The position numbers were made by a program, and so were the translations under genes. Of a stretch of 31,504 nucleotides of DNA, positions 1-22,230 are shown in pieces. The stretch is taken from the IMG/VR virus record IMGVR_UViG_3300008255_000325, positions 1 through 31,504 of that record; one strand, written 5' to 3'. Position 1 is the stretch's first letter. Each line of letters opens with the position of its first letter. The notes beneath the pieces were generated by a model that saw only the letters and a list, made by a program, of their open reading frames with translations, ran no database searches and was not told the origin of the DNA. The stretch comes from a virus (lineage: Duplodnaviria > Caudoviricetes).

Positions 1-668
1 CCCAAGGAACTGATCGTCATAGCTCCTGCTACATCAACCAGACCGGTTGGGGCGCTCGTTCCAATCCCCATCTGTCCGCTGGCATCAATCACAACTGCTG
101 TTGTGTCGGTGTAAGTCCCGTCATCATTGAATCTGGCGGTGAATCCTGAAGCGGCATTAGTGACATTGAGAACAGTTCCTGTGCCTGCGGTTCCAGTGGC
201 TCCGACTTTTAAGACGTTTCCTGTGTTGCCTGTGTTGGCTCCGGTCAATTCGATCTGCGCTAAATCTCCTGTTAATCCCGTCGCTGAAGAAGCGACATTG
301 ATCGCGTCTCCGGTTGTGAGAGAGTTAGCGGTATATGTCAGGCCGATTCCTGTTGTGCCGGTGAATGATTGACTCCAAGTATTGGTGGTTTGGTTGAGAA
401 TCAAAGCGGCGTCTAAATCGAGAGTGTCTTCGAAGTCGATGAAGTCGAGAATATCGCTTGATGAAATTGTAACTGTAAGAATTCCATTTGATAATGTGCA
501 GTCAACGCCAGCTCCAACACAATCAAGAACACGATATCTACCAAGTCGAGTTCCTTCATTATCAGCTAAAGGAGCATTGCTGATTGAAACAGGCTGCGCA
601 AAACACGGAATGGCTGATAAAAATAAAATTAACCAACCAAAATACGATACGCGGAATTTGTAACCCAT
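1..668 (-). CDS. Tail fibre/spike-like protein with N-terminal signal peptide (partial, runs off the left edge)
   Basis: Not in the ORF track; translated by hand from ATG 668: MGYKFRVSYFGWLILFLSAIPCFA|QPVSIS...; T/G/S-rich beta-type sequence with the fibre-type motif GQMGIGTSAP; AAGGA upstream. Confidence 0.7.
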   Translation of the reverse strand, partial: MGYKFRVSYFGWLILFLSAIPCFAQPVSISNAPLADNEGTRLGRYRVLDCVGAGVDCTLSNGILTVTISSSDILDFIDFEDTLDLDAALILNQTTNTWSQSFTGTTGIGLTYTANSLTTGDAINVASSATGLTGDLAQIELTGANTGNTGNVLKVGATGTAGTGTVLNVTNAASGFTARFNDDGTYTDTTAVVIDASGQMGIGTSAPTGLVDVAGAMTISSL

Positions 669-940
669 GTGAGTTTTATCCTTCGGATATTAAGTCCATT
701 AAGTTGAACCATTTCTCCAGCCTTAATAGTATGTTGATCTCCGTAATCGTTTTGATCGTTATTGTAAATTTGCACAATAATGTCCCCATTTCCATCATTT
801 ATAAAATATCCGGCATTAGCTGGCTTATTGCTCAAATCGTCCCTAACTTCAAGGACGCGTGGACTATCACCTGTTACGAAAGACGTATCTTCATAGGCTT
901 TAGTTTTTGTGGTTGTAAATTGAATTGTTCGAGATGGCAT
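629..940 (-). CDS. Hypothetical small beta-rich virion-associated protein
   Basis: 103 aa ORF with AAGGAGA RBS, collinear with the structural operon. Confidence 0.7.
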   Translation of the reverse strand: MPSRTIQFTTTKTKAYEDTSFVTGDSPRVLEVRDDLSNKPANAGYFINDGNGDIIVQIYNNDQNDYGDQHTIKAGEMVQLNGLNIRRIKLTWVTNSAYRILVG

Positions 941-949
941 TGATTCTCC

Positions 950-977
950 TTGAAAAACTTAAATTATGTGATATATT
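950..977 (+). promoter_or_regulatory. Sigma70-like promoter, antisense to the structural operon
   Basis: TTGAAA-16 nt-TATATT with TGn extended -10; same architecture as 21219-21246 and 23335-23362. Confidence 0.5.
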
Positions 978-983
978 TTAGAC

Positions 984-1058
984 ATGGATGCTATATTTTA
1001 TCTGATTGGCGGATTTCTTTTGCTATTTTCTGAAGATATAGCAAACCTTATCGTTTAA
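984..1058 (+). CDS. 24-aa hydrophobic micropeptide, probably leaderless
   Basis: MDAIFYLIGGFLLLFSEDIANLIV; ATG lies 7 nt after the predicted -10; fills the gap between two minus-strand genes. Confidence 0.45.
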   Translation: MDAIFYLIGGFLLLFSEDIANLIV

Positions 1059-2766
1059 GATATTTGATACCTTGTAATATTCCTAATCCTAAAGCTGTAT
1101 ATCCAGCTGTTCTTCCAATATTTTCTACCAATTTTCTTTTCTTTTCTTTATCCTGCAAAAGCAACCTAATTTTATTTTCTCGAAAGCCAAGACGTTTTAA
1201 ACGGTCAGTTAATTCTTTATTAATTGCCGCTTCTTTTTGGATGGCTGTATCTCTGATAGACTTCAATGTCGGAGAAACATTTTCTTTAGTTCGGATTAAT
1301 TCTTCTCCCTTAATTTTGGCTTTAGATGTAAAATTTCCGACACCGGGGAAACTCTCAGAGCCTTTTTCTAATTCTGAAATAAACCTTTCCTCGCCAGCCT
1401 CAGTCTTTTTAAGCCCAAAACGTTTTACTAAATTGGTTCCCATCTTGGTATCAAATTCACCCTTACGAGGTTTAAAAATTTGATTTGCTTTTTTCATATT
1501 CTGAATAACAGGAGCATAACTTTTTTGTAATTCAGCAAATTTTGGAACACGTTTAGCAATAAGATTTCCAAAATTTTTATCTAAAATGGCCGCCGCGATA
1601 TCTTCTTGCGTTAATCTTTGATTTCCAGATTTAGCTCCGGCGGTCATAGACGCGCGAACAGCTTTTATATCTTCGTGAAGTTTCCTAAAGTCAATCGCCT
1701 CATCAGACTTATCAATAATATTTCCTGCTTCGTCTATAATTTGAGAAGCATATTTTTTCTTTAGTAACTCTATAATCTCTCTTGGTTGACCTTCAGTAAT
1801 AAATGATTCATTAAGCTCATTTAATGTTTGACCGATAATCTCGTCAGCCTCACTTCTTGTAATATCTTGTCCACTTTTTGTCAAATCATCAGCAACTTGA
1901 TCTCTGATTTCCCCATATTTTTTAGAATTGTCTTTAAAATATTTAATTAACTTAGGCTGAACATCCGCCGAAGTCGTTTCAGAAATCTCATTCATTTGTT
2001 CATCAAGAATTTTTATATCATTTTTAAATCTTTCTTTAGTTGTATTCAAAATTTCATCAGATTCAGTTTTTGCTTGTGAAATCTGCTCTCCGTAAAGTTC
2101 TCTTACATCCTTTTTTTGTTTTGACAATTCTTGTAAAGGCTGAAGCCTTGTTGATTTCTGCTTTAATTTTCTAACCCCACGCATAATTTTTGAAGCACCC
2201 GTCGCGACTGCTCCAACGCCAGCCCCTAAAACACCACCAGCCAACGCTTGTCCCGCTTGTTTTTGAGGAAGTTCAGAAATTTTAGCATCTGAATTCATTA
2301 CCTGCGTAGCTCCATAACTCGCCCCTTCAGCCGCGCCCCTTATTAATCTTTTACCTAAAGTTTTTCCAGCAATCATTTTTCCTATTCTGCCAGCTACTGC
2401 GGTAGAGCCGCCGCCAAACATTCCAGCGGCACTTGATAATCCAGTCATCTGTGAATCTTCTGGAATATAAGATTTTCCTGTAACTTTTTTTGAAATCAAA
2501 TCAGGCAAGCCAAATAAATAAGAATTAACCATCGGTTCTGTGGCCATATCTAAACCTTTAGAAACAACTCCTAAAGGACTAGCCTCACTCTCGGTAATTC
2601 TTTGCTCACGCTTTGCTTTGTCTAAAGCGGTAAAGGCTTCTTCAGGGGAAGAAAAAGGATTTTGAGGGGACTGTTCGGTTTCTCTTCTTTTTTCAAAGCC
2701 TATGATCTGTTCCGTGGTAAAACCAGATGATCTAGCTTTTTGAAATTGTTCTTTAGTAAGAGGCAT
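1048..2766 (-). CDS. Putative internal virion/DNA ejection protein (large)
   Basis: 572 aa, helical, with G/A-rich hydrophobic segments (GQALAGGVLGAGVGAVATGA); last of three coupled genes after the GNAT gene, as in podovirus ejectosome clusters. Confidence 0.65.
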   Translation of the reverse strand: MPLTKEQFQKARSSGFTTEQIIGFEKRRETEQSPQNPFSSPEEAFTALDKAKREQRITESEASPLGVVSKGLDMATEPMVNSYLFGLPDLISKKVTGKSYIPEDSQMTGLSSAAGMFGGGSTAVAGRIGKMIAGKTLGKRLIRGAAEGASYGATQVMNSDAKISELPQKQAGQALAGGVLGAGVGAVATGASKIMRGVRKLKQKSTRLQPLQELSKQKKDVRELYGEQISQAKTESDEILNTTKERFKNDIKILDEQMNEISETTSADVQPKLIKYFKDNSKKYGEIRDQVADDLTKSGQDITRSEADEIIGQTLNELNESFITEGQPREIIELLKKKYASQIIDEAGNIIDKSDEAIDFRKLHEDIKAVRASMTAGAKSGNQRLTQEDIAAAILDKNFGNLIAKRVPKFAELQKSYAPVIQNMKKANQIFKPRKGEFDTKMGTNLVKRFGLKKTEAGEERFISELEKGSESFPGVGNFTSKAKIKGEELIRTKENVSPTLKSIRDTAIQKEAAINKELTDRLKRLGFRENKIRLLLQDKEKKRKLVENIGRTAGYTALGLGILQGIKYLKR

Positions 2767-3719
2767 TATTGTCCTATAGATTGTAAATAGGCGTTATATT
2801 CATCATCTTGTGATTGCCCTTGAGACTGCTCCATTCCGCCATCCCGAGGGTCTTCCCCAAAGCTCTTGAAATAACCATCTATCTTGCCTTCATTTTCAGC
2901 ATCAAGAATCTTTTTATATCTGTCAAATGCTGACTTTATACGTGAGATTGAAATAAGATCATCGTTAGCCGCTGACTTCTTGAATTCCTCCATTTCTTTA
3001 TCTGAAATCGCGCCTTTTGTTTTCATGGATTGCAAAAGTGTAGTGTCGGTTAAAATCGACTTTACTCTTTGCCAATCGCCTAGAATTTGATTATTCGGGT
3101 CAAAATTTTTCATCCATTCGATCTTTATTTTACCACCTAAACCAGTGGGTAAATTATTCAATAAAGGCATAGCTTCTTCAATAAATTTTAGATTCGCGTT
3201 ATTTACGGAATAACTTTCAGAAAATTCAATTTGCTTTTTCTTTTTATAGTTTCTCTCCGTAGCCGTCATCTTTGGTTCTTGAGAGATTTGTTCATAATCT
3301 CTACCGAAAGACGTTATCTTGTTAGGCTGCGCGGGCGTTAGTCCGGCTTGTTGAACAATGCCCCTGCCAAGATCTGATTTTGGACTAACTGTCATGGTAT
3401 CCGGAGACATAGCTTCGCCTATAGCTCCTACTGGAGTATTTTGCAATGGCCGAATCTTACCCTCAATCTGACCTTTTAAAAGTTCTTGTTCTGTTTGATT
3501 TTTATTTTTAAGATCTTCTAATGAACTCTGTTGTTTTAATTCAAAATCGCTTCTCATTGAAAGTTCTTTAAACAAATTCTTTAATTGGATTTCTTCGTCT
3601 TTGCGTTTTTGCTCCTCTGCCCGACGACGTTCAAAACTCGCATTAACCTGATTTAAAACAGTTGCCCACGGATTAACAGTAGTATCATAGCCTGATTTAT
3701 AACCTTTTAAATAAGCCAT
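2766..3719 (-). CDS. Putative internal virion/DNA ejection protein (middle)
   Basis: 317 aa, coiled N-terminus, C-terminal KGAISDKE motif often seen in ejection proteins; 1-nt stop/start overlaps on both sides. Confidence 0.6.
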   Translation of the reverse strand: MAYLKGYKSGYDTTVNPWATVLNQVNASFERRRAEEQKRKDEEIQLKNLFKELSMRSDFELKQQSSLEDLKNKNQTEQELLKGQIEGKIRPLQNTPVGAIGEAMSPDTMTVSPKSDLGRGIVQQAGLTPAQPNKITSFGRDYEQISQEPKMTATERNYKKKKQIEFSESYSVNNANLKFIEEAMPLLNNLPTGLGGKIKIEWMKNFDPNNQILGDWQRVKSILTDTTLLQSMKTKGAISDKEMEEFKKSAANDDLISISRIKSAFDRYKKILDAENEGKIDGYFKSFGEDPRDGGMEQSQGQSQDDEYNAYLQSIGQ

Positions 3720-4774
3720 TATCGTCTCCTTATGCTATCGTACTGATCGAGAAGTTCAGCTCCTGATATATCTCTTAATCCTGAAAGAGAATTATAATCT
3801 TCCCCACGCAGAGATGTTAAATCAGTAGTAGTTGTTGACGGCACAGAAGGATTAAATCCACCGGATATTAAATTTCCTCCAATTTGACCTAAAGATTTTA
3901 AGCCTTGAGCTTGCATTGCCGCACCTGCGCCAGCTCTTTGCCCAAATACATCCGTTGTGGTATCAAACGCCCTTGCCGCGCCAGCTTCACCTATGGCGGC
4001 ACCACTAAGAGCGGCTCCTGTTGTTCTTCCTTTAGCTCCTGCTACATTATTTTGCTCACCTGATAAAAATGACTGCAACTCCGCTCTAGCTCTTTCTTTC
4101 TCTGATAAAGTTCTCTCTGCAAACGTACCTGATTCAGCTCTTTGATTACCACCTAAAGTCAAATACGCATTAGCCAAAGAATTTCTTTGAGCAATACGCT
4201 GTTGAGCCGCTTTAACAGCCAGATCAACATTAGCCCGTCCAAGTTGTTCAAAGCGTATACCGCCTTCAGGTTGACCACCAAATACGCCTCTGCGATTGGC
4301 CTCTACATTAACCGCTTGCCTCGCAAGTTCCAATTCCGGCGCGAGCATAGCATAAGGATCATCGCTTAGAGCCTCTTGACCAATCTCGCGATTCAATTCA
4401 CCTTCACTCGCAAATAATTCTTCTCCAGATAACCCTTGACGACTTTTGAGTTGATTAATGAGGTCTTTGTTAAGAGAGCTTTCTTCGCCGATTAACTCTT
4501 CCCCGGTTAATCCGGCTCTGCGTTCATATTCAACTTGACGCCTCTTAGAAAGCTCATAATTCTCTTTTTCACGAGCTTGTTCTTCAGGAGTCAATGTCCC
4601 AAATTTTTCTTCAATTCGCAGTTGCTCTTCTCTGGCTCTTGCGGCTTCCGCTTCAGCGGCAGAGAGCGCAGCTTGTTGTCCTTTCTTAGCCGCTTTAGCC
4701 CCCATAGAAGATGATGCCAAAGCCGCCCCGCCTGCGATCGCACTTCCGGCAATAATAGCTGTTGTAATAGCCAT
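3719..4774 (-). CDS. Putative DNA ejection/pilot protein (P22 gp7 / T7 gp14 position)
   Basis: A/G-rich N-terminus MAITTAIIAGSAIAGGAALASSSMGAKAAKK followed by Q/A/E-rich helices. Confidence 0.7.
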   Translation of the reverse strand: MAITTAIIAGSAIAGGAALASSSMGAKAAKKGQQAALSAAEAEAARAREEQLRIEEKFGTLTPEEQAREKENYELSKRRQVEYERRAGLTGEELIGEESSLNKDLINQLKSRQGLSGEELFASEGELNREIGQEALSDDPYAMLAPELELARQAVNVEANRRGVFGGQPEGGIRFEQLGRANVDLAVKAAQQRIAQRNSLANAYLTLGGNQRAESGTFAERTLSEKERARAELQSFLSGEQNNVAGAKGRTTGAALSGAAIGEAGAARAFDTTTDVFGQRAGAGAAMQAQGLKSLGQIGGNLISGGFNPSVPSTTTTDLTSLRGEDYNSLSGLRDISGAELLDQYDSIRRR

Positions 4775-4775
4775 A

Positions 4776-5255
4776 TTAAATTCCTTTTATAAAATGGGTT
4801 TCCATTGATCGAAATCCGCTTTTTGTATAAAAATCATTCATTTTATTTGCGTTTAAATTCCGCATTGAAACCATAGAAAGTAAACTCGCTCCTCTTGCCT
4901 TGCATTCATCCTTAAATGCTTTTATTAAACGTACTCCAATCGTTCCATGACGAAATTCTTTATTAACATACCACATCGATTCTTGAGCAATAATCTGATT
5001 CTTGTTAAATATTGACCTGCATGCCACCCCACCGATACAGCCAATAATTTTTTCATCCAATTCAGCTACTATCCCAATATTTGGATTCAAAAAAGTCATT
5101 AAAGTTTCTTCCAAAGTCTTGTCATCTAAAGTTATTCCGTAATGCTTCAAACTTTCATTATAAAAAGAAACAATTAGAATTTTGACTTGTGCTAAATCTT
5201 CAAGAACAAAATTTCTTATGTTTGTAACTTTATTATCTTCCAATGCACTTATCAT
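4776..5255 (-). CDS. GNAT-family acetyltransferase
   Basis: WYVNKEFRHGTIGVRLI acetyl-CoA binding motif A and C-terminal FYTKSGF. Confidence 0.85.
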   Translation of the reverse strand: MISALEDNKVTNIRNFVLEDLAQVKILIVSFYNESLKHYGITLDDKTLEETLMTFLNPNIGIVAELDEKIIGCIGGVACRSIFNKNQIIAQESMWYVNKEFRHGTIGVRLIKAFKDECKARGASLLSMVSMRNLNANKMNDFYTKSGFRSMETHFIKGI

Positions 5256-5776
5256 TTTTTTACCAAAAACAAGACTTGAACAAGTCTAGGTTCTCCGTCT
5301 ATTTCAAAATTCTCTATCAAAGCTCTCGAATGATATAACGCCGCAGGAAAGACAATGATTCTATTTTTTCTCATACGAACAATAACTGATTCTTTAAATT
5401 GGCTTGAATCTGAACAATCCTCTATATCCTCAGCTTTTAGCTTTTTAGTTGCTGTTCTCTCGTAAAAAATAGTCCCTTCATTGTCGGGATATTTATTATT
5501 GAGATAAAACAAAACTGTATAATCTCCCATGTCAATATCAGAATGAATGTAATTTGGTTCTTTCTGATTGAGCGGAGATTTTCTGATAAAGTTAAGAAGA
5601 ACCTTATGTCCCGGACATAACGCTTCCGAAATTCTGGCTAACGGATTATTAGCATCTTCGATTAAATGTATATTTTTAAACACTCCTGCCGGAGTTGGGA
5701 TATCGCTATATTCCAAATTTAAAGCATTTTTAGAATATAAAAAAAAACTATCTAAAACATCATCAAAGATTTGCAT
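5252..5776 (-). CDS. 2OG-Fe(II) oxygenase-like protein (DUF6445-like)
   Basis: HxD (HSD), YLN, GTxFY, NRxxxF..YHSR and distal R (RLVQV): facial triad plus 2-oxoglutarate-binding Arg. Confidence 0.8.
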   Translation of the reverse strand: MQIFDDVLDSFFLYSKNALNLEYSDIPTPAGVFKNIHLIEDANNPLARISEALCPGHKVLLNFIRKSPLNQKEPNYIHSDIDMGDYTVLFYLNNKYPDNEGTIFYERTATKKLKAEDIEDCSDSSQFKESVIVRMRKNRIIVFPAALYHSRALIENFEIDGEPRLVQVLFLVKK

Positions 5777-6102
5777 TAATTATCTTTCTTTACATTCCCA
5801 TCCGCATCAAATTTACCCTTAATCTTTAAATTCTTAACCGCTGTTTCACGTATTTCTTCTTGAATCAATTTCTCTTTTTCAGATTCTTTTTGAGCTAATG
5901 CTTTATTTTTTTCTTTCACGGCTAAGCGTTCTTGTGTAATGTCTACAAGATTTCCAAGACCAGATTCTTTTCTTATTTCTTCAACATCCATAACACCACT
6001 AAGGTCAACAATTTCTTTATTTTCAACAGAATCAAAATAAATCTTGTTTTCAGCAAAGGCTGGACTACAAAACAACATAAATAACAAAACTAGTCTTTTC
6101 AT
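5776..6102 (-). CDS. Small tail-module protein with signal peptide and C-terminal coiled coil
   Basis: MKRLVLLFMLFCSPAFA|EN; AGGAGA RBS; follows a fibre-like gene. Confidence 0.7.
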   Translation of the reverse strand: MKRLVLLFMLFCSPAFAENKIYFDSVENKEIVDLSGVMDVEEIRKESGLGNLVDITQERLAVKEKNKALAQKESEKEKLIQEEIRETAVKNLKIKGKFDADGNVKKDN

Positions 6103-6112
6103 ATTTATCTCC

Positions 6113-7054
6113 TTACTTATACGCGATATACATAACTGTTGCCGTTCCTGCGCTTGGAGTTCCAGATTTTGTCCAAGTTAAAGTAAAGCTATTTGATGAT
6201 GTAGCTGAAACAACAGCCGTTTGCGCCTGTGTTCCTGATTCATAAACGGCAATAGAAATTGCCATAGAAATATTTGTTGTTGTTTCTAACAATATACACA
6301 TATGGTTCGTTCCATCATCCATGCCCCAGCTTGTAAAACTATTAATTGCCGCGCCTTGTTTGGTTGCAAAAAATACTAACGCTTTTGGAGTAAATCCTAT
6401 TCCAGTATATTCAACCGCCGCAGTTGTCGCGGTCATATCACGATCTAAAGTTCCAACTTTATAGCTCGTTGGGTCAGCCCAAGTTGTATCTCCTCTCCAA
6501 AATGTTGACGCTGAAGCAGAAGTCCCAGAATTAAGATTTGTTACAGGAAGATTTTCTGTGACTTCGGAAGAAAGGCTTACAGTTTGACCCAAAAGGCTTA
6601 CCTCTCCTGCTGAATTTGGAAAAGTAACGATTCTATCAACTGTTGGGTCAGTAACAACAAACTGTGTTTGAAAAGCATCATCAGTAGAACCTTCAAAGAG
6701 AATGCCTTGACCACTTAAAGATACAGAAGATGCCACACCATCGGTTGATAAAACCCAAATATCACTTGTATCGTTATATCGAATGAAAGGCTTACTTGCG
6801 TCTGCATTATTAGCAGTAATTGTTTTATTTCCAGCCGCCGCGTCACCCACAGCTAATGTATTTGATGTCTGGTCGATGTCATTATGATCGTGATTGTTAA
6901 ATGTTGTTGTGACCGTATTATTACGGGTATTCTCATCGGATGCTGAAATGACTGTTCCATCAACGGCGGCAGGACTTACTGATAAAGTGCTCGACGGAAC
7001 AGCAAAAGCTAAACTTGGAATGAGTAAAAATACTAAAAGCAATAGTCTTTTCAT
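6113..7054 (-). CDS. Tail fibre-like protein with signal peptide
   Basis: Start moved to ATG 7054 (AGGAGA RBS): [18 protein letters not shown]|VP; S/T-rich; fibre-type motifs [19 protein letters not shown] and TGIGFTPKA. Confidence 0.75.
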
Positions 7055-7067
7055 ATGTCTCCTAAAA

Positions 7068-7367
7068 TCAAGGGGTGTTTGTAAGTTGGACGCCATGCCA
7101 AACATTGGAACTGTTTGTGTTTATCTCTAAGTAATGATTTCCGCCTGTCTGCAAAAGAAGCATATCTCCCTTTTTTCCTCGACGAGACCCGTCAGGATTT
7201 GTCGTCGTTACAGGAAGCCTGTGAAAATTTTCATAAATACTTCTTAAATAATGCTGTAACTCCGGCGGTTGATTACTTAAGGGCGGCGGTGAAGGAATAT
7301 TATCAGCCATTACGCCGAAACTTAATGTCAAAACAAATCCTAAAATTATTCCTGATATTAGTTTCAT
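7068..7367 (-). CDS. Small tail protein with signal peptide
   Basis: [21 protein letters not shown]|DN; ATGA-coupled to the nozzle gene. Confidence 0.7.
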
Positions 7368-8920
7368 ATACGGTCAGAATTTTCTATAAAAATTTGAAAT
7401 CCCTTAACTTCAATGGCCTGTGTTGTGTTACTAAATTCAATCTGAAAGAAATCCCCTTCTTTATTAACTTCAATGCGTCCTGTGATTAAATTCTGATCTC
7501 CGTAAAAATCAGTTCCATAAATTGCTGTTCCCCATAAAGAACTATCTCCCGCTAAATTTATAGTTTCTATCGTCCCCGTTCCTTCAAAATCTTTTCTTGT
7601 TTCAACAGTTAAATTATAATTCCCTTTTTGATTAGCAAAGACCCGAAGAAGTTTCCAATCTTTCGTTGGAGAGGCTTCTGGAAACCTGAAATACTTAGTT
7701 GTATAATTTGTCGAAATCGAAGTCCCAGCATCATCTGTTCCTGAAGGATATTTGTAAACAAACCCCGAATAGTCTCCAAAGACGATCATTTCCTCGCCGG
7801 TGCCGTTATCCGCAACAGCCATAGCATTAGCCGTAATCCCGACAAATTTAGTCCAAGCTAAGTGAAATGTATCAAAGAGCAAAATTCTGTCGTGTGTGCT
7901 AGAACCTGTATTTGAAAAAGATAGGTAGTAATCTTTGTCAAAAACGACACTTGAACAATATTGAAATCTTGAAGAACTCGCGCTATCAAGCGTTCCTTCA
8001 ACTTTTGTTGAAATCAATTTTAAATTAACCGCTCCGTCATAAAGGTAAACATCACCTTGAGAGGTTGTAAGAATGAAGTCATTTCCTGAAAGACTTACAG
8101 CATTCGGTGACGTTACCCCATAATTTGAGATCATTCTTTGAAGCTGGAATGTATCCTTATCGTCCCCTGTCAGTCTCCAGATAGAATTGTCTTTAAAAAT
8201 GTAAAGAGCGTCAAATCCCGGGACTATTGCCCTTATAATCGATCCGTCATTTGTCTCAATACTTACATTTCCACTAAGGCCTGTCGTCCAGTTATCAATA
8301 TCTCCAACATCAGAAAAATATAAGGTAGATCGCGCGGTAGAACTTCCAGCCGCAAAAGCCATGTTCTTATGAAAAGCTACAAGGGTGGCGCTAGGCGGTG
8401 AACCTCCCAAAGCGGCGGCGTTTCCTGTTCCTGTCCATTTATAAGGAGCGGTAGTTGAAATCCCGTCTTCAATGAGTAATTCATCTTCACCAACCGCGAA
8501 AGTCGCTAAATTATTCTGTCCGGCAGAGAAAATAAGAGCGCCCGTGATATCATCCCAAGTCCCATCGGGGCCACTTCCGCTGTAATCCATCTTTCTTATC
8601 TTGTCATCATCAAAGACCCCGACAAGGAACTTATCCCCATCCGCTTGGGCATAATACTTCAGTCCTGTCGTTACAACCGAAGCCCCAAGAGTTGAAGAAT
8701 TAAGTTTCGCGAAACCTTCTCTTGTTTTCCAATTTCCAGAAGTCGTAAAGACGACATTCTGAAGATCAGCGGCCTCATTATCTTCAATGGCAATCGGAGA
8801 GAATGAATCGTTAAGTCCTCCGACATTATTGAAAAAATCCTGTTTAAGCCATCGAATTTCAGCAAATGCAGGTTGAGCTATTAGAAAGAACGCCAAAGCT
8901 AAATTTAAAATATTTTTCAT
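7364..8920 (-). CDS. Tail nozzle / DNA stabilisation protein (P22 gp10 / T7 gp12-like beta-propeller) with signal peptide
   Basis: 518 aa; GGLN..SP..I..NEA..LQNV..G..KTREG N-terminal pattern and beta-rich repeats (LYFSD, LYIFKDNSIW) typical of podovirus nozzles; directly after the adaptor; begins MKNILNLALAFFLIAQPAFA|EI. Confidence 0.75.
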   Translation of the reverse strand: MKNILNLALAFFLIAQPAFAEIRWLKQDFFNNVGGLNDSFSPIAIEDNEAADLQNVVFTTSGNWKTREGFAKLNSSTLGASVVTTGLKYYAQADGDKFLVGVFDDDKIRKMDYSGSGPDGTWDDITGALIFSAGQNNLATFAVGEDELLIEDGISTTAPYKWTGTGNAAALGGSPPSATLVAFHKNMAFAAGSSTARSTLYFSDVGDIDNWTTGLSGNVSIETNDGSIIRAIVPGFDALYIFKDNSIWRLTGDDKDTFQLQRMISNYGVTSPNAVSLSGNDFILTTSQGDVYLYDGAVNLKLISTKVEGTLDSASSSRFQYCSSVVFDKDYYLSFSNTGSSTHDRILLFDTFHLAWTKFVGITANAMAVADNGTGEEMIVFGDYSGFVYKYPSGTDDAGTSISTNYTTKYFRFPEASPTKDWKLLRVFANQKGNYNLTVETRKDFEGTGTIETINLAGDSSLWGTAIYGTDFYGDQNLITGRIEVNKEGDFFQIEFSNTTQAIEVKGFQIFIENSDRI

Positions 8921-10032
8921 CGTGATATAGGAAACCCGTATTTAGATGGTAAAGACGCTGTTAAATCGTCTCGATTAACGTCATCTTGAGAAATCCTTCG
9001 ATAAACCCTATTAGTCGAAGGGTTACTGATTCTTTTCCACATATTTTCTTTTTGTTTCTCAAATAAAGCGTCTTGAATCAAAGATTCAGCTTTATCTTTT
9101 GTAGCCCAAGCCCAAATGAGACCAGCGGTAATAAGAATATGATGATACTTTTCAGGAAGGTCTGGAATGTCTTCATCATTGATGAGAGGAAATGGAACTC
9201 TTTGATACTTAAAATAAATATTTTCTATCGCGTCAGGAATGTTAAATAACTGAATTATATAGTTATCTAAAGATATCGAATAAGTTGAAGCTGAAAATGT
9301 CGCTGATATCTTTTCATAAATCGTAATCTGAGTATCACTATCAACGGTCTTGACGGTATAAACCACTGTCCCTACGGTAATCCGACTTCCTTTAGTAAGC
9401 CCTTCAACACCGGTCCATACTGTGCTGGAACCTGTAATGACCGAAAGATTCACTGTTCCTGAGACTGTTCCTGTTGAATAGGTATCAAGTTTCGTTCCGA
9501 CCAATATGCTGAATTTTGGACTTCCTTGCGCGTTAGGTGTTGGTTCATACATGTCAAAAGCTGAATTTTCAAGATCAACGATTGCTTGACTATTTTCTAT
9601 CTGTCGAAGAACCTTATAAACATCCAAATCAGCAGGAAGGCGGTATTCATCTTTAAAAATAGAATAAGTCGCGCCGGAAGCGGTTGTTCCTTGAAACACA
9701 GCTTCAAGAGTTATTTCCGTCGCGCTGACATAAGCCGCTATTCGATAATAAGCATTCTGACTTGCCGCTCTGAATTTTCTTCCGACCATAGCGGCCGTAA
9801 AAGTCGTCGAACTTCCTATAACAGTCTTTGAGTTGTTTGTAACCGTAACTGTCCCTGTCTCATAAGGAGCGACAGTTGTAATATATCCATCCGTCATCAA
9901 ATAAGGCAAGTCTTTGTCAGTCAAACGATCAAGACCCATCTGAATAGCGTCTTTAATCAAAGCGTCTTGACTTGTTACAAGAGAAATCGCTTCGACACGA
10001 GTTAAAATTGTTGAGAATTGAAGTCTAGCCAT
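8917..10032 (-). CDS. Head-to-tail adaptor (tail tubular protein A-like) with two inserted beta domains
   Basis: Helical N-terminus, YRLPAD, C-terminal DEDIPDLPEKYHHIL..G; two internal repeats GTVTVTNNSKTVIGSSTTF / GTVSGTVNLSVITGSSTVW; no signal peptide. Confidence 0.7.
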   Translation of the reverse strand: MARLQFSTILTRVEAISLVTSQDALIKDAIQMGLDRLTDKDLPYLMTDGYITTVAPYETGTVTVTNNSKTVIGSSTTFTAAMVGRKFRAASQNAYYRIAAYVSATEITLEAVFQGTTASGATYSIFKDEYRLPADLDVYKVLRQIENSQAIVDLENSAFDMYEPTPNAQGSPKFSILVGTKLDTYSTGTVSGTVNLSVITGSSTVWTGVEGLTKGSRITVGTVVYTVKTVDSDTQITIYEKISATFSASTYSISLDNYIIQLFNIPDAIENIYFKYQRVPFPLINDEDIPDLPEKYHHILITAGLIWAWATKDKAESLIQDALFEKQKENMWKRISNPSTNRVYRRISQDDVNRDDLTASLPSKYGFPISR

Positions 10033-10612
10033 TGACCGTCTCTATTGGCGTGTTTAATGCTTTTTCACGATCTTTTAAAGATGCTTCTCTCGCGTCCAAA
10101 GCAACTCTCGCTGATTCAAGCTCTTTTTCAGTAGCTAAAATAGATTCTTTTTTTGAACTCAAGAACTCAAGGAACTTTTCAACTTCTTCCGCTGACTTAG
10201 TCTCAGCTTCTTTTAAAGAAATTTCTCTTAATTCAAAACTCTTTTCAATTTCTGAAAATTTTTGTTGAGTTAAAGTTTTGTAATCTTCAAACAATTCTTG
10301 CTCTTCAACAAGTTTCTTTCTTTCAGAATCAACATTTTCAAGACATATTTTAATAGCACTCAATCTTTCTTCATATCCAAGAATGCTTTTCTGAATCTCA
10401 ATAACTTCATTTCTCTTTGATTCAAGAATTTTAAATTCTGCATTAATTTTATCCAAAGATTCTTGTTCTTTGAACGCGATACGCTTATCAGCTTCAATCT
10501 CTTTTTGTTTTAAAGTGTTCTCCAATTCTTCATTCTCTTTAAGAAGAGCATCTTTGCGGCGTTCAACTTCTTTCAAAGAATCTTTCAAAAGATCATCAAT
10601 GGTCGTAGACAT
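10025..10612 (-). CDS. Coiled-coil protein, unknown function
   Basis: 195 aa, E/K/L-rich heptads over the whole length; AGGAGA RBS. Confidence 0.75.
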   Translation of the reverse strand: MSTTIDDLLKDSLKEVERRKDALLKENEELENTLKQKEIEADKRIAFKEQESLDKINAEFKILESKRNEVIEIQKSILGYEERLSAIKICLENVDSERKKLVEEQELFEDYKTLTQQKFSEIEKSFELREISLKEAETKSAEEVEKFLEFLSSKKESILATEKELESARVALDAREASLKDREKALNTPIETVNG

Positions 10613-10622
10613 TTTTTTCTCC

Positions 10623-11231
10623 TTATGCTGTAATTAATTCATTTTTAGATATTTCCCAATCTTTCTTTTCTTTAATCAAAGACCCTCGCGCTTGGTCAAG
10701 ATCAATCAATGCTTTCTTCAAAGATTTTTCTCTTCCATAAATCTCATTTTCTTTAGCTTTCAATTCATCCTTCACAAATTTTGATTCCTCAATGATTCTT
10801 TTAGCTTCGTCGAGGTCTTTAAGAACATTAATTTTATAATTATTGAATGAATTTCTTTCTTCATTGATCTTTTTACGACGATCTTCCAAATCAAGTAATT
10901 GCTGTTCTCGTCGATGTAATATATTTTCACGATCAGAAATAGCAACTTCACGTTGTTCAATGGCGTATTCTCTTGAAACTAAAGAATCCATCTTCCGATT
11001 AATCTTTCTTTCATCTAAAATTTCCACTTTTTTATTTTTAAGCTCATCAAGTTTCCTTTGAGCCTCTTTACGAATATCTTCTTCACGCGCTTGAACTTCA
11101 AAATTTGAACGCTTGATGACTAATTCATCAATTTGTTTTTTAATGTTATTTCTTACATCCTTTAGCATTGTGATATCTTCCTTAACTTCTTTAACTTCTT
11201 TTTTATGTTCTTCATCCCTTTGGTCACTCAT
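10623..11231 (-). CDS. Coiled-coil protein, unknown function
   Basis: 202 aa, E/K/R-rich heptads; AGGAG RBS. Confidence 0.75.
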   Translation of the reverse strand: MSDQRDEEHKKEVKEVKEDITMLKDVRNNIKKQIDELVIKRSNFEVQAREEDIRKEAQRKLDELKNKKVEILDERKINRKMDSLVSREYAIEQREVAISDRENILHRREQQLLDLEDRRKKINEERNSFNNYKINVLKDLDEAKRIIEESKFVKDELKAKENEIYGREKSLKKALIDLDQARGSLIKEKKDWEISKNELITA

Positions 11232-12375
11232 GAATTGCTCCTTTTGTTTGCGATAAAATCCCCGCTGTATAGATAACCGCGATCAAAGCCAGCGGCGCGA
11301 TTCTCAAAGGAAAAGACCCTAAACACAAAACCAGAAAAGAGATAAGACCCGCGATGTATCCAATTAATAAAATATTATTTTCACTAACAAAAATTCTTTT
11401 AAACAAATCCACTACAAACAACACAAATATGGAAAATCCAACAATTCCAATATCAAAAAGAATTTGCAAATATTCGTTATGAGCAAAAAATGTTACTGTA
11501 TTTCCCGGCTTAAACTGGAACATCTCAAAAGACCCTAACCCATGACCGAAAAACGGAGCTTCTAAAAATTTGTTCCAAGTAATCTTCCAAAGCTCTACAC
11601 GTCCTGTTAAAGAAAAAAATTCAGGATTATAGAAGGCATAAAATATTCCTCCCGTGATAAAAATTAAAATTAAAAGAATCAATTTAACCCAGCTTCGATT
11701 CATTAAAAGATAAACAACAAGTCCAGTCCCAAAAGATGCCAACGCCATAGTCTTGTCCAAAAGAATCAAAGCGATTAAAATCGCGACATAAAAAAACTTG
11801 TATCTTAAATCTTTAAAAATCAAACACATTGGAGCGCATAAAGCCAAAAAACCGGATGTTAAAAAAACTGATCCAAAAAATGACACCATTTGAAGTTTTC
11901 TGTCAAAATGACCATTTACATACAGAATCTTCTCATTTTTGAATATCTGATCGATTGAAAAATATTGAAATATCGAATACAAGGCAAAAATCCCGCCAAG
12001 CCACGCGATGACTTTTCCTGTATCAACCCAATCTTTTGTTGAGGCACATTCATAGAGTAACTTTATAATCAAAATTCCACATAAGACACTGACTGTCGGC
12101 CTGAAATTCCAAAAATTCCAAATAACTTTTCCATTGGCCGTTATGAAAGAGCTGTAAAAAAAATATACAAAACCCAAAGCAATATAAAAAAGCCCTGTTG
12201 CTAAAAATGGATTTCGAAGTGAAAAAAAACTCTGACAACAAAAACTATAAGAAAAAAGCGACAACGCTCCCAAAACAAAAACAGCTTCTTTAATCGCCAA
12301 GAAAGAATCATTAGCCGCGAAAGGCCAAAATATGACTGATGAAATAACTAAAAATGTGTTTAAAATTATGAACAT
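11224..12375 (-). CDS. O-antigen ligase / O-oligosaccharyltransferase-like (WaaL/Wzy_C family) polytopic membrane protein
   Basis: Roughly 10-12 hydrophobic segments; family motifs GRVELW, PFFGHGLGSF and AHNEYLQILFDIGIVG, including the conserved Arg and His. Confidence 0.85.
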   Translation of the reverse strand: MFIILNTFLVISSVIFWPFAANDSFLAIKEAVFVLGALSLFSYSFCCQSFFSLRNPFLATGLFYIALGFVYFFYSSFITANGKVIWNFWNFRPTVSVLCGILIIKLLYECASTKDWVDTGKVIAWLGGIFALYSIFQYFSIDQIFKNEKILYVNGHFDRKLQMVSFFGSVFLTSGFLALCAPMCLIFKDLRYKFFYVAILIALILLDKTMALASFGTGLVVYLLMNRSWVKLILLILIFITGGIFYAFYNPEFFSLTGRVELWKITWNKFLEAPFFGHGLGSFEMFQFKPGNTVTFFAHNEYLQILFDIGIVGFSIFVLFVVDLFKRIFVSENNILLIGYIAGLISFLVLCLGSFPLRIAPLALIAVIYTAGILSQTKGAIHE

Positions 12376-12407
12376 AAAAAAGGGGAGAGGTTTTACCCTC
12401 TCCCTTT
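12376..12407 (-). terminator. Intrinsic terminator after the capsid/decoration genes
   Basis: Minus strand GGGAGAGG-GTAAAA-CCTCTCCC-CTTTTTT; the U-tract abuts the ATG of the ligase-like gene. Confidence 0.8.
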
Positions 12408-12415
12408 AGCTTTCA

Positions 12416-12946
12416 TCAGTCAGCACCAGTTGGATTAACCCAGATATACAACTTACCGCTATCTGTTCCATCCCCTGCTTCAAGGGCAACACCTAAGTTA
12501 GTGCCGCCTCCGCAGAGACCTTTTCCATTAACAGTTCCTCCGCCAGCGCCAACAGTCGTAGAACCAACGGCCGTATTAATCGACACAGCATCACCGGAAT
12601 CAGCGCATTGCGTATCGATCGCGCCTTTAGTAACCACAACAACAGGCGTTTGATCTAACGAAGTCAATGACTTAACTACACCAACAACCAAAACGCTGTC
12701 AGCGGAGCTTGTCAAAGTGACATAAGAACCAAGCGTGGATGCCGCTTCAACGCCAGTTCCGGCTGTATCCAAGATAACAACCTGTCCGGCAGACATAGTT
12801 TCACCGGAGTTGTTAAAAAACACAGCGGTTTCTTGACTCATAGCGAAGTTTCCTCCATCGCCTCCGCTTGTTCCCATCGAGAAGGCCGCATTGCCAACAA
12901 AGACACTTGCCAACAACAGAGCGGCAATCAAAAATAACTTTTTCAT
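12416..12946 (-). CDS. Capsid decoration/cement-like protein with signal peptide
   Basis: Immediately after the major capsid gene; NNSGETMSAGQVV, VVGVV, VVTKG and LGVALEA match the beta-tulip/DUF2190-like cement pattern; start at ATG 12946 after GGAGGG: MKKLFLIAALLLASVFVGNAAFS. Confidence 0.65.
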   Translation of the reverse strand: MKKLFLIAALLLASVFVGNAAFSMGTSGGDGGNFAMSQETAVFFNNSGETMSAGQVVILDTAGTGVEAASTLGSYVTLTSSADSVLVVGVVKSLTSLDQTPVVVVTKGAIDTQCADSGDAVSINTAVGSTTVGAGGGTVNGKGLCGGGTNLGVALEAGDGTDSGKLYIWVNPTGAD

Positions 12947-12960
12947 TTTACCCTCCATTA

Positions 12961-13962
12961 TTAGTAGGTATCCGCGTTTTGCAATAGACCGCCGCGAGCC
13001 AGATTCTTGTTAATCAAATTTCCAGCCCAGAAGATAAACGCGACCAAATCATCTTTGTCGTTAGACTTGATGAAATCGCTGATTTCCGCGTCCCGACCTT
13101 CACGGACGTAAAGCTGGACATAATCTGAATTAAACAAATAACCTGTATTAGCGGGAACGCCGTCATCATGGAATAAATTAGCCCCATACCAGCGAATGTT
13201 AGGAAATCCCGCGTCCAACATTGCTTTGCTTCCCGCGCCAACATCCGCTAAAGGCATATTGGTTTGGAAGGTCGTGGTTAATTCACGGTTAAAGTTGTCC
13301 CATGTTGACCCATTGACGACAAAGATATCAGGAGTCTCATCAGCGCGAGAACATTGACGATAGAGCGTTCTCATGCGAATCAAGCCGTTTGTGTCGAACG
13401 CGCTTGATACGTTTGCTAATTGATGACGCCATGCCGTAGTTGTCGCGCGGTTAAGAAGTCCGACTGAACCTGTGGTTGTAGATGTTGAAAAATGCGTCTG
13501 CAACCCGGTAATCTTTCCTGTATCTGTATCAGCTCCATCAGAGAAAATACCGATAGATGAACCACCGATAGCATCTCTCATGGAGATTTCAGCCGCTTGG
13601 ATGAACATTTCCAAAAGATCAGGCGCGGCATCATCGCCTGTCCTGATCATATCTAATCCAGAAACTTGCACCGGACATTGCAACTGCTTCCAGTCATAAA
13701 TCGCACTGGTTGCGGGGTCAGCCCGAACAGGCGTAATTGCGTCAAGATCGGTATAACCTTCAGTCGTGGGAAGCTCTTTCAAGATATTGAATCTTAAATG
13801 AGGACTGCCCCCGACTTTCTTGATCGCGCCTTTTTCCTTCAAACAATAAAGAAGCGCTGTTCTGGAGGAGATATTGTCGAACAAATAAGGCTCAATCGCC
13901 TCATCGCGCATGATCGTAAAAATACGATTATACACTCTTGTGAGTGACAAATTTCCAGCCAT
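12961..13962 (-). CDS. Major capsid protein (HK97 fold)
   Basis: 333 aa after the scaffold gene; strong GGAGGT RBS; motifs DNI..LL..L, YDWKQ, ITGL and AGFPNI. Confidence 0.85.
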   Translation of the reverse strand: MAGNLSLTRVYNRIFTIMRDEAIEPYLFDNISSRTALLYCLKEKGAIKKVGGSPHLRFNILKELPTTEGYTDLDAITPVRADPATSAIYDWKQLQCPVQVSGLDMIRTGDDAAPDLLEMFIQAAEISMRDAIGGSSIGIFSDGADTDTGKITGLQTHFSTSTTTGSVGLLNRATTTAWRHQLANVSSAFDTNGLIRMRTLYRQCSRADETPDIFVVNGSTWDNFNRELTTTFQTNMPLADVGAGSKAMLDAGFPNIRWYGANLFHDDGVPANTGYLFNSDYVQLYVREGRDAEISDFIKSNDKDDLVAFIFWAGNLINKNLARGGLLQNADTY

Positions 13963-13975
13963 TTAAAACCTCCGC

Positions 13976-14818
13976 TTAATTGAACCTGCCAGCGGATTTC
14001 AAGTTTCCTATAAATCCACGCCAGTTGACGCGACCTTTATTATCTCTGGGAACATCGACTTTCGTGGTCATTGAACTTCCGTTTGGCAAGCTTCCGTTTT
14101 TTTTGAATTCGATTTCTTTCTTTTTCTTTTCTTCCGCGCGTTTCAAAATGGCGTCTTCAATCTCATTTTCTTCAGCGAAGTGATAGAGAATTTTCTTGAC
14201 TTTCTGATTCGGGAATTTAAGGGCTGAAACCTTGATGTCCTCTCTATACTTACCCACCAAGTCTTTTCCAAATTCCTTCTCAAGAGAATCAAGTTCAACT
14301 TCAACATTTTTGGCATGATTTGAATTGGAAGAATTCTCAATCCTGTTAATCTTTTCTTCCAATTCTCTGATCTTGCCTTTTAATGCCGGAGTATCAGTTT
14401 CCTCTGCCACAATTTGACGCATTTCCTTTAACTGCTCACGCACATCGGAATCAGTAGCGTTTTCAATGAGCTTATCGAGCCTTTTCATACTTTTATCGAT
14501 ATTAACGCCAGAGTTTGTCTTCCCGGCGCGAAAATCGTTAATAACCGCGATCACGGCCTTTTCCATCGCCGGATTGCCTTTGAGTTCATTCTGAATTTCT
14601 AAAAGAGCTGAAAGAGCCTTTCTATCGGTCTCTATTTTCTTTTTTTCTTCAGAAAGAATCTCTGTCTTTGCCCGATAACCACCATCGTAAAACTTGACCT
14701 TATCTGTTACTTTCGCGATAACTTCATCGCGAATCGCTTCAGGAACATCGCTGAAATCTATATCAGCGATTAAAGCGTTTAACTTAGCCCCTGACTTATC
14801 ATCTTTCCCGGTTGTCAT
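13976..14818 (-). CDS. Putative capsid scaffolding protein
   Basis: 280 aa, charged and helical, directly upstream of the capsid gene; YRAKTE.L pattern. Confidence 0.7.
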   Translation of the reverse strand: MTTGKDDKSGAKLNALIADIDFSDVPEAIRDEVIAKVTDKVKFYDGGYRAKTEILSEEKKKIETDRKALSALLEIQNELKGNPAMEKAVIAVINDFRAGKTNSGVNIDKSMKRLDKLIENATDSDVREQLKEMRQIVAEETDTPALKGKIRELEEKINRIENSSNSNHAKNVEVELDSLEKEFGKDLVGKYREDIKVSALKFPNQKVKKILYHFAEENEIEDAILKRAEEKKKKEIEFKKNGSLPNGSSMTTKVDVPRDNKGRVNWRGFIGNLKSAGRFN

Positions 14819-15519: not shown

Positions 15520-15839
15520 TTAAGTCTCGCCCAGGCGGAGCCTCCGACATGAAGTAAAATTCCTTCTTGTTTCAAGTCCCGCAAAATCTCTCTAAATATT
15601 TTTTTATCTTCAGGTTTGAAATCGCCATCCATAAAGTCCCTGAAACTCCCCCGCGTATGGTTAGGTTCAGAAACTTTAGACATATTGAATTTATGTTCAA
15701 TCTCCGGCGAAATTTCATTGATATGCTCAATCAAACTTTCACGAAGGAAATCTTTTCGGCTTAACTCTTTTGAATCATTGTTTACGATTTCTTGAGTTTC
15801 TACATTAATTTTTCTTGGTCTTCCTCTGCCTCTAGACAC
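15516..15839 (-). CDS. Hypothetical protein with AT-hook-like N-terminus
   Basis: RGRGRPRK at the N-terminus; overlaps both neighbours. Confidence 0.6.
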   Translation of the reverse strand: MSRGRGRPRKINVETQEIVNNDSKELSRKDFLRESLIEHINEISPEIEHKFNMSKVSEPNHTRGSFRDFMDGDFKPEDKKIFREILRDLKQEGILLHVGGSAWARLK

Positions 15840-17871
15840 GTCGTCCTCCTGAATTTTGTCCTGTTCCTTTTTGACTTGTCACTTGACCTAAAAAATCTGA
15901 CATATCAGGAACACCGCCTCTGTTGATTTCAGGCGTGGTTGATTGCTTCGGGACTTTACTGTCTCCCTGTTGCGGAAAAGCCTTTGGATTCTTGCGTTGC
16001 ATACTTTCCATATGAGCGTTAATGTGCTCGTCTATTTGAGGCGTAAGAGCAAGTCCCGGGACTGAATACGCCTGTGAATGAACTTGAAGATGAAGCATAT
16101 CGTTCTCATTAGGACCAACGACTTGAGGAATGCCTTGTAAAAGATATTCATTTTCCTTTTGAGCCGCCGCTATTTCTTCATCGTCATATTTGATAATGGC
16201 GTTATCGATATCCTTAAAGTCATATTTTTTAAGAAGTTGAACTAAAATAACGTCATCTTTGAGCCTATTCGGAAATGTCGCTTTGATGACAGATACCAAA
16301 TCGGTCCATTGTTTACGCTCAACGGCCAAGTCTTTAGGCGGTTGAGTAGAACCCGCGTCAATCTCAAAATAAAGATCATTGTCGATGATCTTGTTAGCAA
16401 CAGCTTTATCTTGTGGAAAATCCGGCCACATTTCAGGAGAAACTTCTTCGCCCAAAATTTCTGAAATTTGATTTCTGCTCTTAAACTGCCAAAGCATCCC
16501 GGCCATAAAACGCGCGATACTGACGACAAAATCTTCAATGATGTCGATTCTCTCGCTTTGACGAATCAAAGCTCCGGCGCGAATGTTCTCGCTTTCAGTC
16601 GCGGTGTCAACTCCCCGAACGCTTCCTAAAAGCTGTTGATAACCGGAGACACGCATCAAATCGTCAAGGATAATATTTCTCAAGCTGTAAAAATCATTAG
16701 GAAGCGCGGGAGGCGTAAAAGACTTAAGTGATTCTTCAGAGAGACTTTCAAGTTCAACAATATCCAAGTCATGCGCGTTTTGAATATTTGTGACTTCCGT
16801 CGGTGATATCACTCCCTTTTTAACCGCCATAAAAGTCCCCGCGCGCTTGCGGTGCTTATTCATAGCGGATGATATGTAAGAAAGTTCCTTCAACTGCGGA
16901 AGCATGGGGACTATGTCAGAAAGTGGATAAGAATTAGCCTTCTCGTCTGTTTGCGGAATTTCATTGAATATTAATGGGAATGTTGGAAATCCGTCAGAAA
17001 GAAAAGGCCAATCCTTTTCCATCAATGTTTCTTTAACAAAATTCTTGACAACCGTAAAGACTTCTTGTCCACGACGGTCAAAAACATGATAGAGCGTTAC
17101 ATCGACAAGCTCAGGGTCTATTTCATTAAAATTCATTCCTCGCGGAGGATGACTTTTATTCATCCTGTAATCCGCGGAGCGGGCTTTGTTTTTGTTCATT
17201 GAAGAAGATGGAGAAATCTCATACTTGGCATTTCCATACATCGGATTATTCAGAAGATCTTCAAGAGACATTTTCTGTTTGATAATCAGATAAGGACATT
17301 CTCGAATATCGTGATAGCCGTCAGGCCATAAGACATTCCACGTCGATAAAAAGTTAGCGAATATATCATCTTCTTTTATTGTTTCATCTAAAATCCCTCG
17401 CTCGACTTCAAGTTTTTCAGGCTTATTGCTTTTAAGCTCAGGGAATTCTTCTTCAATAGATTTTTTCAGTTCATTTTTTTCAGTTAAAATCGTATAACCC
17501 AAATGAATGAATCCCGGAGGCTGTAAAATGCCGTCGATTAAAGTCTTCTTAATCTTGGCCTTCATCTGAAGTCTTCGCCAATAAACGTTTAAAGCGCGTT
17601 CCATCGTCTCAGAAAAAGCTTGTCGTGTCGCGACCTTAGTCCTTGTAAAAATATAAGGGTCTTTAGCGTAAACGGCTCCGACCATGATCTTGACGTATTC
17701 ATAGACAAAATTCACGTCAGACATTTCAGTATTATCGTTTGTAGGTTTTCCAAGGAAAGATGACGTGTAAAGCGAAATCGCCTGATGACGCTCTTTGGTG
17801 TGCTCACTCTGGAGAGCTTCACAGCGATCGATTCGATTAAGCCATTTTTGAATTTCTTGAGATGATTTCAT
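15832..17871 (-). CDS. Portal protein (P22-like)
   Basis: About 680 aa after the terminase; TATE motif, FEIDAGST, C-terminal HLQVH..H region; start ATG 17871 (alternative TTG 17886). Confidence 0.85.
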   Translation of the reverse strand: MKSSQEIQKWLNRIDRCEALQSEHTKERHQAISLYTSSFLGKPTNDNTEMSDVNFVYEYVKIMVGAVYAKDPYIFTRTKVATRQAFSETMERALNVYWRRLQMKAKIKKTLIDGILQPPGFIHLGYTILTEKNELKKSIEEEFPELKSNKPEKLEVERGILDETIKEDDIFANFLSTWNVLWPDGYHDIRECPYLIIKQKMSLEDLLNNPMYGNAKYEISPSSSMNKNKARSADYRMNKSHPPRGMNFNEIDPELVDVTLYHVFDRRGQEVFTVVKNFVKETLMEKDWPFLSDGFPTFPLIFNEIPQTDEKANSYPLSDIVPMLPQLKELSYISSAMNKHRKRAGTFMAVKKGVISPTEVTNIQNAHDLDIVELESLSEESLKSFTPPALPNDFYSLRNIILDDLMRVSGYQQLLGSVRGVDTATESENIRAGALIRQSERIDIIEDFVVSIARFMAGMLWQFKSRNQISEILGEEVSPEMWPDFPQDKAVANKIIDNDLYFEIDAGSTQPPKDLAVERKQWTDLVSVIKATFPNRLKDDVILVQLLKKYDFKDIDNAIIKYDDEEIAAAQKENEYLLQGIPQVVGPNENDMLHLQVHSQAYSVPGLALTPQIDEHINAHMESMQRKNPKAFPQQGDSKVPKQSTTPEINRGGVPDMSDFLGQVTSQKGTGQNSGGRRV

Positions 17872-22113: not shown

Positions 22114-22230
22114 ATGCATCAATTCGCGTCCCTGATGATCGGCCACGCGCGTAATTGGCTGACCGAAAATCAGAGGATAACAGGAGGACGAAATGATAAT
22201 CATGGAAAATACAAAACAACAGATCAATAA
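22114..22230 (+). CDS. 38-aa micropeptide (paralog A)
   Basis: GGAGGTGA RBS; MHQFASLMIGHARNWL...; codon-level similarity to 22996-23100. Confidence 0.5.
   Translation: MHQFASLMIGHARNWLTENQRITGGRNDNHGKYKTTDQ

Follow-up and report, generated by a model that had tools for sequence, protein, structure and literature searches.

The tail parts of podophages are made and joined in the cytoplasm, and tailed phages in general are taken to complete their assembly there before lysis. The phage described here is the linear IMG/VR record IMGVR_UViG_3300008255_000325, analysed whole as the window (31,504 bases, estimated completeness 78%). It shares with the podophage tails of Pa223 (9nwi), Vibrio VP1 (8zkk), P22 (gp4/gp10/gp26, 8eap), Sf6, SU10 and T7 (gp11/gp12) the nozzle fold, an SU10-type head-tail adaptor and the gene order adaptor, nozzle, small protein, fibre and ejection proteins. 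No leader is present on the nozzle homologs in HMO-2011, RHph_N3_19 and MaAM05, whereas the nozzle, the fibres and the capsid cement protein of the window begin with Sec-type leaders. In canonical cytoplasmic assembly the tail and cement proteins carry no export signal; here they do. The presence of a signal on the nozzle, fibres and cement, but not on the head core or adaptor, is a real and conserved feature of this phage and its relatives.

The window cement has the fold of the beta-tulip cements (lambda gpD, TW1 gp56, XM1, Pam3, HFTV1 and the base of phi29 gp8.5) and, like them, is encoded after the major capsid gene. Unlike them, it has a cleavable-type leader, also found in 117 of the best 120 of its 234 homologs, and a co-varying pair of cysteines. 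Sec-exported phage proteins with cleaved leaders include the filamentous phage coats pIII and pVIII and the endolysins of tailed phages; however, filamentous phages extrude single-stranded DNA without lysis and their coats are membrane-anchored, while endolysins are not virion parts. The cultured Cellulophaga phage phi18:3 (Pachyviridae) offers a further comparison: its record annotates gp085–gp087 as structural proteins by tandem mass spectrometry (MS/MS), and all three have hydrophobic leaders, two of which pass the strict form of the test used below. It belongs to an unrelated lineage, however, and leaders are absent from its other MS-annotated structural proteins, capsid-like gp104 and nozzle-sized gp114 among them. 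A literature search, beyond whose reach lay supplements and most subscription journals, returned no account of a nozzle or cement protein being exported, and the word “signal” is absent from the accessible part of a review of decoration proteins (PMC7602432).

The head, tail and ejection genes of the window lie on the minus strand, and the replication and recombination genes on the plus strand. Six genes of the virion module, referred to by their start coordinates, encode a basic n-region, a hydrophobic h-region and small residues at –3 and –1, as expected of Sec substrates cleaved by signal peptidase I (SPase I). They are listed first below (a slash marks the cleavage site), followed by the terminase, head and adaptor genes that have no signal.

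12416..12946, minus strand: beta-tulip capsid cement (decoration) protein, identified by model fold and homologs; signal 12946-12878, 23 residues, AAFS/M; Cys114/Cys145
7364..8920, minus strand: tail nozzle, identified by model fold and homologs; signal 8920-8861, 20 residues, PAFA/E
7068..7367, minus strand: small conserved post-nozzle protein, defined by family alignment; signal 7367-7305, 21 residues, GVMA/D
6113..7054, minus strand: tail fibre-like protein, with weak family evidence; signal 7054-7001, 18 residues, LAFA/V
5776..6102, minus strand: small post-fibre protein, likely a fibre assembly chaperone judging by positional counterparts; signal 6102-6052, 17 residues, PAFA/E
3..668, minus strand: second fibre-like protein, truncated at the end of the contig (weak match to phrog_18345, E 0.004); signal 668-597, 24 residues, PCFA/Q; Cys50/Cys57
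18275..19966, minus strand: terminase large subunit (phrog_38, E 3e-58)
15832..17871, minus strand: probable portal, labelled from size, position and synteny
13976..14818, minus strand: putative scaffold-like protein, preceding the capsid gene
12961..13962, minus strand: major capsid protein (phrog_9953, E 4e-37)
8917..10032, minus strand: head-tail adaptor of SU10 type (PF24175, E 3e-8, above the cut-off; phrog_1980)

Signals were called not with SignalP but with a custom heuristic of n-, h- and c-regions, which demands an uncharged 8-residue window with a mean hydropathy of at least 2.3, net positive charge on the N-terminal side of that window and an AxA-like site. Its chance rate is low, with 69 of 19,590 random internal 50-mers of these virion proteins passing (0.35%). 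The earlier note on this DNA had described six Sec-like leaders and their absence from the head core, adaptor and terminase, and all six were recovered at the same coordinates. The heuristic fails on the window portal, scaffold, major capsid, adaptor, terminase, two coiled-coil and three ejection-like proteins, and neither any other listed minus-strand gene nor any of the 19 early genes on the plus strand passes it. Shine-Dalgarno (SD) motifs precede the starts of 12946, 7054, 6102 and 668, while 8920 and 7367 overlap the upstream stop codon as ATGA. An artefact of start calling was rejected, the primary starts having an SD motif or stop coupling in 44/48, 29/29, 28/32 and 32/32 genes. Lipoprotein or Tat leaders were likewise rejected, with a lipobox-like site in 1/150 and a Tat motif in 0/150 members of four families.

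The earlier note had asked whether homologous phages keep the division between signal and no signal, and it is kept across 83 loci with 752 distinct proteins (open reading frames, ORFs, less than 60 bases from a locus start excluded). The heuristic is passed by 48/65 nozzles, 29/30 cements, 32/34 members of the 7367 family and 32/40 fibres, and by none of the adaptors (0/44), capsids (0/31), portals (0/21), scaffolds (0/23), terminases (0/10) or first ejection-like proteins (0/27). Read by eye, the 17 nozzle misses comprise 13 fragments or miscalled starts and four near misses. Among the best 120 of 222 nozzle homologs 103 pass, the misses being eight fragments and nine plain hydrophobic leaders that narrowly fail. 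Of 98 aligned nozzles, 95 have A, S, G or C at position –1 and 90 have A, S, V or C at position –3. Apart from these positions the leader varies, and conservation begins at Trp +4, just past the cleavage site. Five control loci with distant nozzles gave one signal call in 63 genes. The positional counterparts of the second fibre in relatives also carry leaders. Two terminal-repeat records have one nozzle match each, and the virion must therefore use the signal-bearing nozzle.

The identities that the earlier note gave to the nozzle and decoration proteins were borne out by their folds. The PDB was searched by sequence with profiles of the nozzle and the cement and with two control nozzles; this yielded nothing useful, so folds were needed for identification. 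The model of nozzle 8920 (pLDDT 90.9) has the beta-propeller nozzle fold and matches in Foldseek Pa223 (E 2.7e-26, TM 0.77) and P22 gp10 (E 1.4e-19, TM 0.64); every listed match at ranks 1–32 is a phage tail or portal-tail entry, including VP1, Sf6, SU10 and T7 gp12. Its gene directly follows that of the adaptor within the portal-capsid-terminase module, and the adaptor belongs to the SU10-type family. The model of cement 12946 (pLDDT 90.8) aligns with HFTV1 8qsy (8qsy_JI) over 113 residues with a VIA Z of 13.0 and an rmsd of 2.2, and with the FCWL1, Sf11, Pam3, XM1 and TW1 capsid proteins at Z 8–11. Thirteen chains reach a Z of at least 8, and many capsid decoration entries rank above unrelated ones. 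PF09956 was found in 3/14 cement family members, and the gene is flanked by that of the capsid and by a terminator-like hairpin. Two domains that resemble the N-terminus of a tail fibre are inserted in the adaptor (phrog_1980; F2-pyocin side fibre, E 1.7e-6).

The remaining signal-bearing proteins are less well defined. The fibre labels of 7054 and 668 are weaker: 7054 gives partial tblastn matches to phage tail proteins and atlas leads below 0.9, and the profile of the fibre N-terminus has no significant match in the control phages. The counterpart of 6102 in locus L016 matches the tail fibre assembly family phrog_8746 (E 0.0017), and wherever a small gene of this kind occurs its product has a signal; 6102 is therefore likely to be a co-exported fibre assembly chaperone. 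A family search found no convincing match for 7367, which by its location, that of the plug gene in P22, is a candidate plug or short needle. The portal-like protein likewise has no match in the family searches.

A profile search with the nozzle collected 13,951 representatives, of which a wide set of 116 full-length members (the best 150 plus members of the window clade) was used for a tree. Signals occur in 33/116 of these by the strict heuristic or 36/116 by the loose one, in several branches, and the tree requires 11 changes of the trait as compared with 31 when labels are shuffled. A single clade of signal-bearing nozzles was rejected by the approximately unbiased (AU) test (p 3e-10; 5,000 replicates only, constrained FastTree search, two fragment rows dropped and two labels set by hand). 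Most of the signal-less nozzles have their start only a few residues N-terminal to the shared motif, at the place to which cleavage would bring the mature end. The tree and these start positions together indicate that the leader is an add-on, gained or lost several times. Genome MW202554 (L024:3003-3497 and 7539-8564) has a nozzle without a leader, although a cement-sized protein and a fibre each have one, and may be an intermediate state.

The earlier note had also proposed that cysteine pairs would suit an oxidising compartment, and for the cement this is supported. Both pairs that it named are present in the window, Cys114/Cys145 in the cement and Cys50/Cys57 (DCVGAGVDC) in the second fibre. 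The cement cysteines co-occur in 48/54 cases (115 rows), with 12 joint changes versus 9 and 11 single ones, and the nozzle pair 178/190 behaves likewise, with six joint changes. Variable cysteine columns have partners in all four signal-bearing families and none in the adaptor, capsid and portal, where there are few such columns; the same test on the terminase was confounded by its nine, often truncated rows. The cement is therefore likely to contain disulfides, which may be optional elsewhere, but the proposal yields no general rule for nozzles: cysteine enrichment as a mark of exported nozzles is unsupported in the set of 116.

Between the cement and the adaptor lie three genes whose products have no signal by the heuristic.

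11224..12375, minus strand: Wzy_C membrane protein, like O-antigen ligases or O-oligosaccharyltransferases (PF04932, E 8e-17), with Arg259 and His299
10623..11231, minus strand: conserved coiled-coil protein; signals 0/18 in the window family
10025..10612, minus strand: second coiled-coil protein, by its sequence

The Wzy_C protein shares with WaaL and PglL-TfpO the Wzy_C domain, a multi-pass membrane topology and the Arg and His motifs, but differs from them in being encoded by a phage, inside a head-tail operon. Its gene lies directly 3′ of the cement gene in 22/25 distinct intervals. Across 30 rows, some of them duplicates, the Arg is kept in 29 and the His in 26; in WaaL/PglL-type transferases these residues are catalytic. 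At E up to 0.01 Pfam gave only Wzy_C, and no PglL-type NCBIfam matched, so that the PglL-specific domains (Wzy_C_2 and PglL_A) were not seen in these searches. Enzymes of the Wzy_C family work on the periplasmic side, and this would give a reason for exporting virion parts. The tfpO gene adjoins the pilin gene, much as the window Wzy_C gene adjoins that of the exported cement. The Wzy_C protein may O-glycosylate the cement or fibres, a function to which we assign slightly less than an even chance; receptor modification and a structural role are possible alternatives. The Ser and Thr content of the exported families (0.16–0.24) overlaps that of the adaptor (0.19) and capsid (0.16) and lends no support to glycosylation sites. 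A second Wzy_C gene follows the fibre genes in genome G006 (L095:14173-15276), and in L070 the gene lies between those of the adaptor and the nozzle (2844-3986). A signal-less gene of 190–320 codons occupies the place of coiled-coil 11231 in 25/25 intervals.

Export itself of the leader-bearing virion proteins is very probable, judging from their sequences. The earlier note had placed the split at the boundary between adaptor and nozzle; there the adaptor is indeed without a signal and the nozzle has one, but the cement, which also has a leader, would bind the capsid shell, and small genes without a signal are interspersed with the signal-bearing ones, so that the split does not fall at this boundary alone. 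The phage is an uncultured, P22/SU10-like short-tailed one, whose virion parts would be made on both sides of the host inner membrane. The nozzle, post-nozzle protein, fibres, likely fibre chaperone and cement would be exported by Sec, cleaved by SPase I and folded in the periplasm, with disulfides optional, and there the Wzy_C protein would O-glycosylate the cement or fibres. Filled, adaptor-capped heads would meanwhile hold a temporary cytoplasmic cap, for which coiled-coil 11231 is a speculative candidate by virtue of its position. After holin action, at lysis, heads and exported parts would mix inside the outer-membrane sac. That the exported parts mature in the periplasm and join DNA-filled heads at inner-membrane rupture is the reading we favour, as somewhat more likely than not. 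Its most elaborate form, in which nozzle, plug, fibres and cement leave the cytoplasm together with their chaperone, receive host lipid-linked glycans from a phage O-oligosaccharyltransferase in the periplasm and are clicked at lysis onto temporarily capped heads to yield a glycan-coated virion, the route being repeatedly gained and lost, is decidedly more tentative and perhaps a one-in-three prospect at best.

Several observations weigh against joining after export. P22 heads without a plug lose DNA even before lysis (PMC3741392); a late-joining nozzle therefore needs a cap, and this is the main gap of the proposal. Signal-less nozzles nest among the signal-bearing ones, so export is not required for the nozzle fold. 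The mature window nozzle has a single cysteine, two of three tested nozzle cysteine pairs have a single origin on the tree and so carry no information, and cysteine number and parity are alike in signal-bearing (mean 3.4) and signal-less (3.8) nozzles of the 116-member set. The Wzy_C gene is absent from its interval in 3/25 loci (missing in L019 and L033, moved beside the nozzle in L070), and the His is missing in 4/30 Wzy_C rows. The holin-like small membrane ORFs of the relatives have no family match, and the window, at its estimated completeness, has none.

The gap of DNA retention would be closed if the exported parts pre-assembled at the outward side of the inner membrane. Filled heads would dock to them, at a site provided by the Wzy_C membrane protein or the coiled-coil proteins, and would cross locally by breach or budding ahead of general lysis. 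The fixed place of a multi-pass membrane gene and coiled-coil genes between cement and adaptor agrees with this, and the rows without the His would allow the Wzy_C protein a non-enzymatic role. The conserved cleavage sites, however, leave no anchor on the nozzle, the L019 and L033 intervals lack Wzy_C, the cement has to reach the entire capsid surface, and two complete genomes revealed no translocation machine. Such docked assembly is consequently improbable, although the best placed of the alternatives to joining at membrane rupture.

Leaders could also exist without full export, as membrane-clipped or internally started proteins assembled in the usual way in the cytoplasm. The signal-less nozzles in nested branches and the similar cysteine content across the wide nozzle set are compatible with this, and in the window cement Met24 stands just past the point of cleavage and codon 36 is an ATG preceded by an SD motif. 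Yet internal SD-backed starts are rare (2/48 nozzles, 4/29 cements, 1/32 fibres and 8/32 members of the 7367 family) and Met24 is not conserved. SPase I cleaves on the outer face of the membrane, and the pairing of the cement cysteines fits an oxidising space, which makes this explanation quite unlikely. An unusual host cell plan, in which the signals route parts into an internal membrane-bound space where heads also mature, deserves about the same low weight. The single nozzle match in GTDB genomes comes from a genome bin labelled Planctomycetota; however, that contig is phage-like to both ends, without host genes there, close nozzle matches are confined to one of 301 genomes of Planctomycetota (two others give weak, partial ones), and signal-less heads would still need to cross a membrane. 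A secreted structure apart from the virion is very improbable: some fibres have LamG or lectin domains resembling those of secreted adhesins, but there is one nozzle match in each terminal-repeat genome, the adaptor-nozzle-fibre order is that of cultured podophages and the folds are virion folds.

Both complete relatives encode signal-bearing muralytic enzymes (SLT or DPBB_1) and one encodes a signal-bearing outer-membrane barrel; together with the anchored hydrolase of the window these fit a lytic phage of a diderm host. Small lipoprotein ORFs without family matches also occur. Muralytic enzymes of differing families with a signal or anchor (window 25933-26487; L095:8519-9097; L092:15061-15480; L097:9929-10291) sit among early or accessory genes, not in a lysis cassette.

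The other features of the window are the following.

18027..18308, minus strand: small exported CxxC protein in the gap between terminase and portal; lipobox-like leader LFSG/C in the window copy
12383..12404, minus strand: terminator-like hairpin 3′ of the capsid and cement genes, from a consensus scan only
4776..5776, minus strand: oxygenase-like protein and GNAT acetyltransferase, both without signal, from family matches
1048..4774, minus strand: three ejection (internal virion)-like proteins without signal; 2766 matches phrog_342 (E 2e-6), the others are labelled by position
629..940, minus strand: small protein without signal, directly before the second fibre
25933..26487, plus strand: cell-wall hydrolase (PF07486) with an N-terminal hydrophobic anchor in its sequence, among early genes

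Seven of ten homologs of the CxxC protein pass the heuristic, and most of their leaders are plain, without a lipobox. The oxygenase-like gene and the GNAT acetyltransferase, which has eight signal-less homologs, separate the exported tail genes from the ejection genes; a further ejection-like family has signals in 0/8 members. A small signal-less gene precedes the second fibre in 5/12 loci examined, and in L054 (3102-8826), where a fibre and lysis-like block is relocated between the coiled-coil gene and the adaptor, such a partner still precedes the fibre. Among the early genes of the plus strand is a RadC-like JAB-domain gene (22193-22621); the same strand has a region (26784-27500) with several open frames, encoding a protein with a long run of six-residue repeats of the G-I-K/E-A-G-S/E/W type. 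A promoter scan of the window gave chance-level matches.

Major capsid genes appear split or preceded by an endonuclease-like ORF in the ORF lists of L003 (4164-5972), L006 (4761-5981) and L012 (4327-5495), and similarly in L022 (4258-6016), L050 (1300-2916) and L066 (4370-5987), which suggests introns or homing endonucleases. In genome G004 (L097:12432-15095) the ORF at the terminase position has 887 residues versus about 560 in relatives and may contain an intein.

All parts of this virion have known folds; should export and late joining be demonstrated, the route of assembly would be categorically new. The trait is widespread: among the 116 representatives of the wider nozzle family 33 to 36 have it, spread over several branches. 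If the nozzle, which is the DNA gate, and the cement are exported, completion of the virion would be tied to rupture of the membrane, and filled heads would need another means to hold their DNA. The virion proteins would then also be open to periplasmic chemistry, such as disulfide formation and lipid-linked glycosylation.

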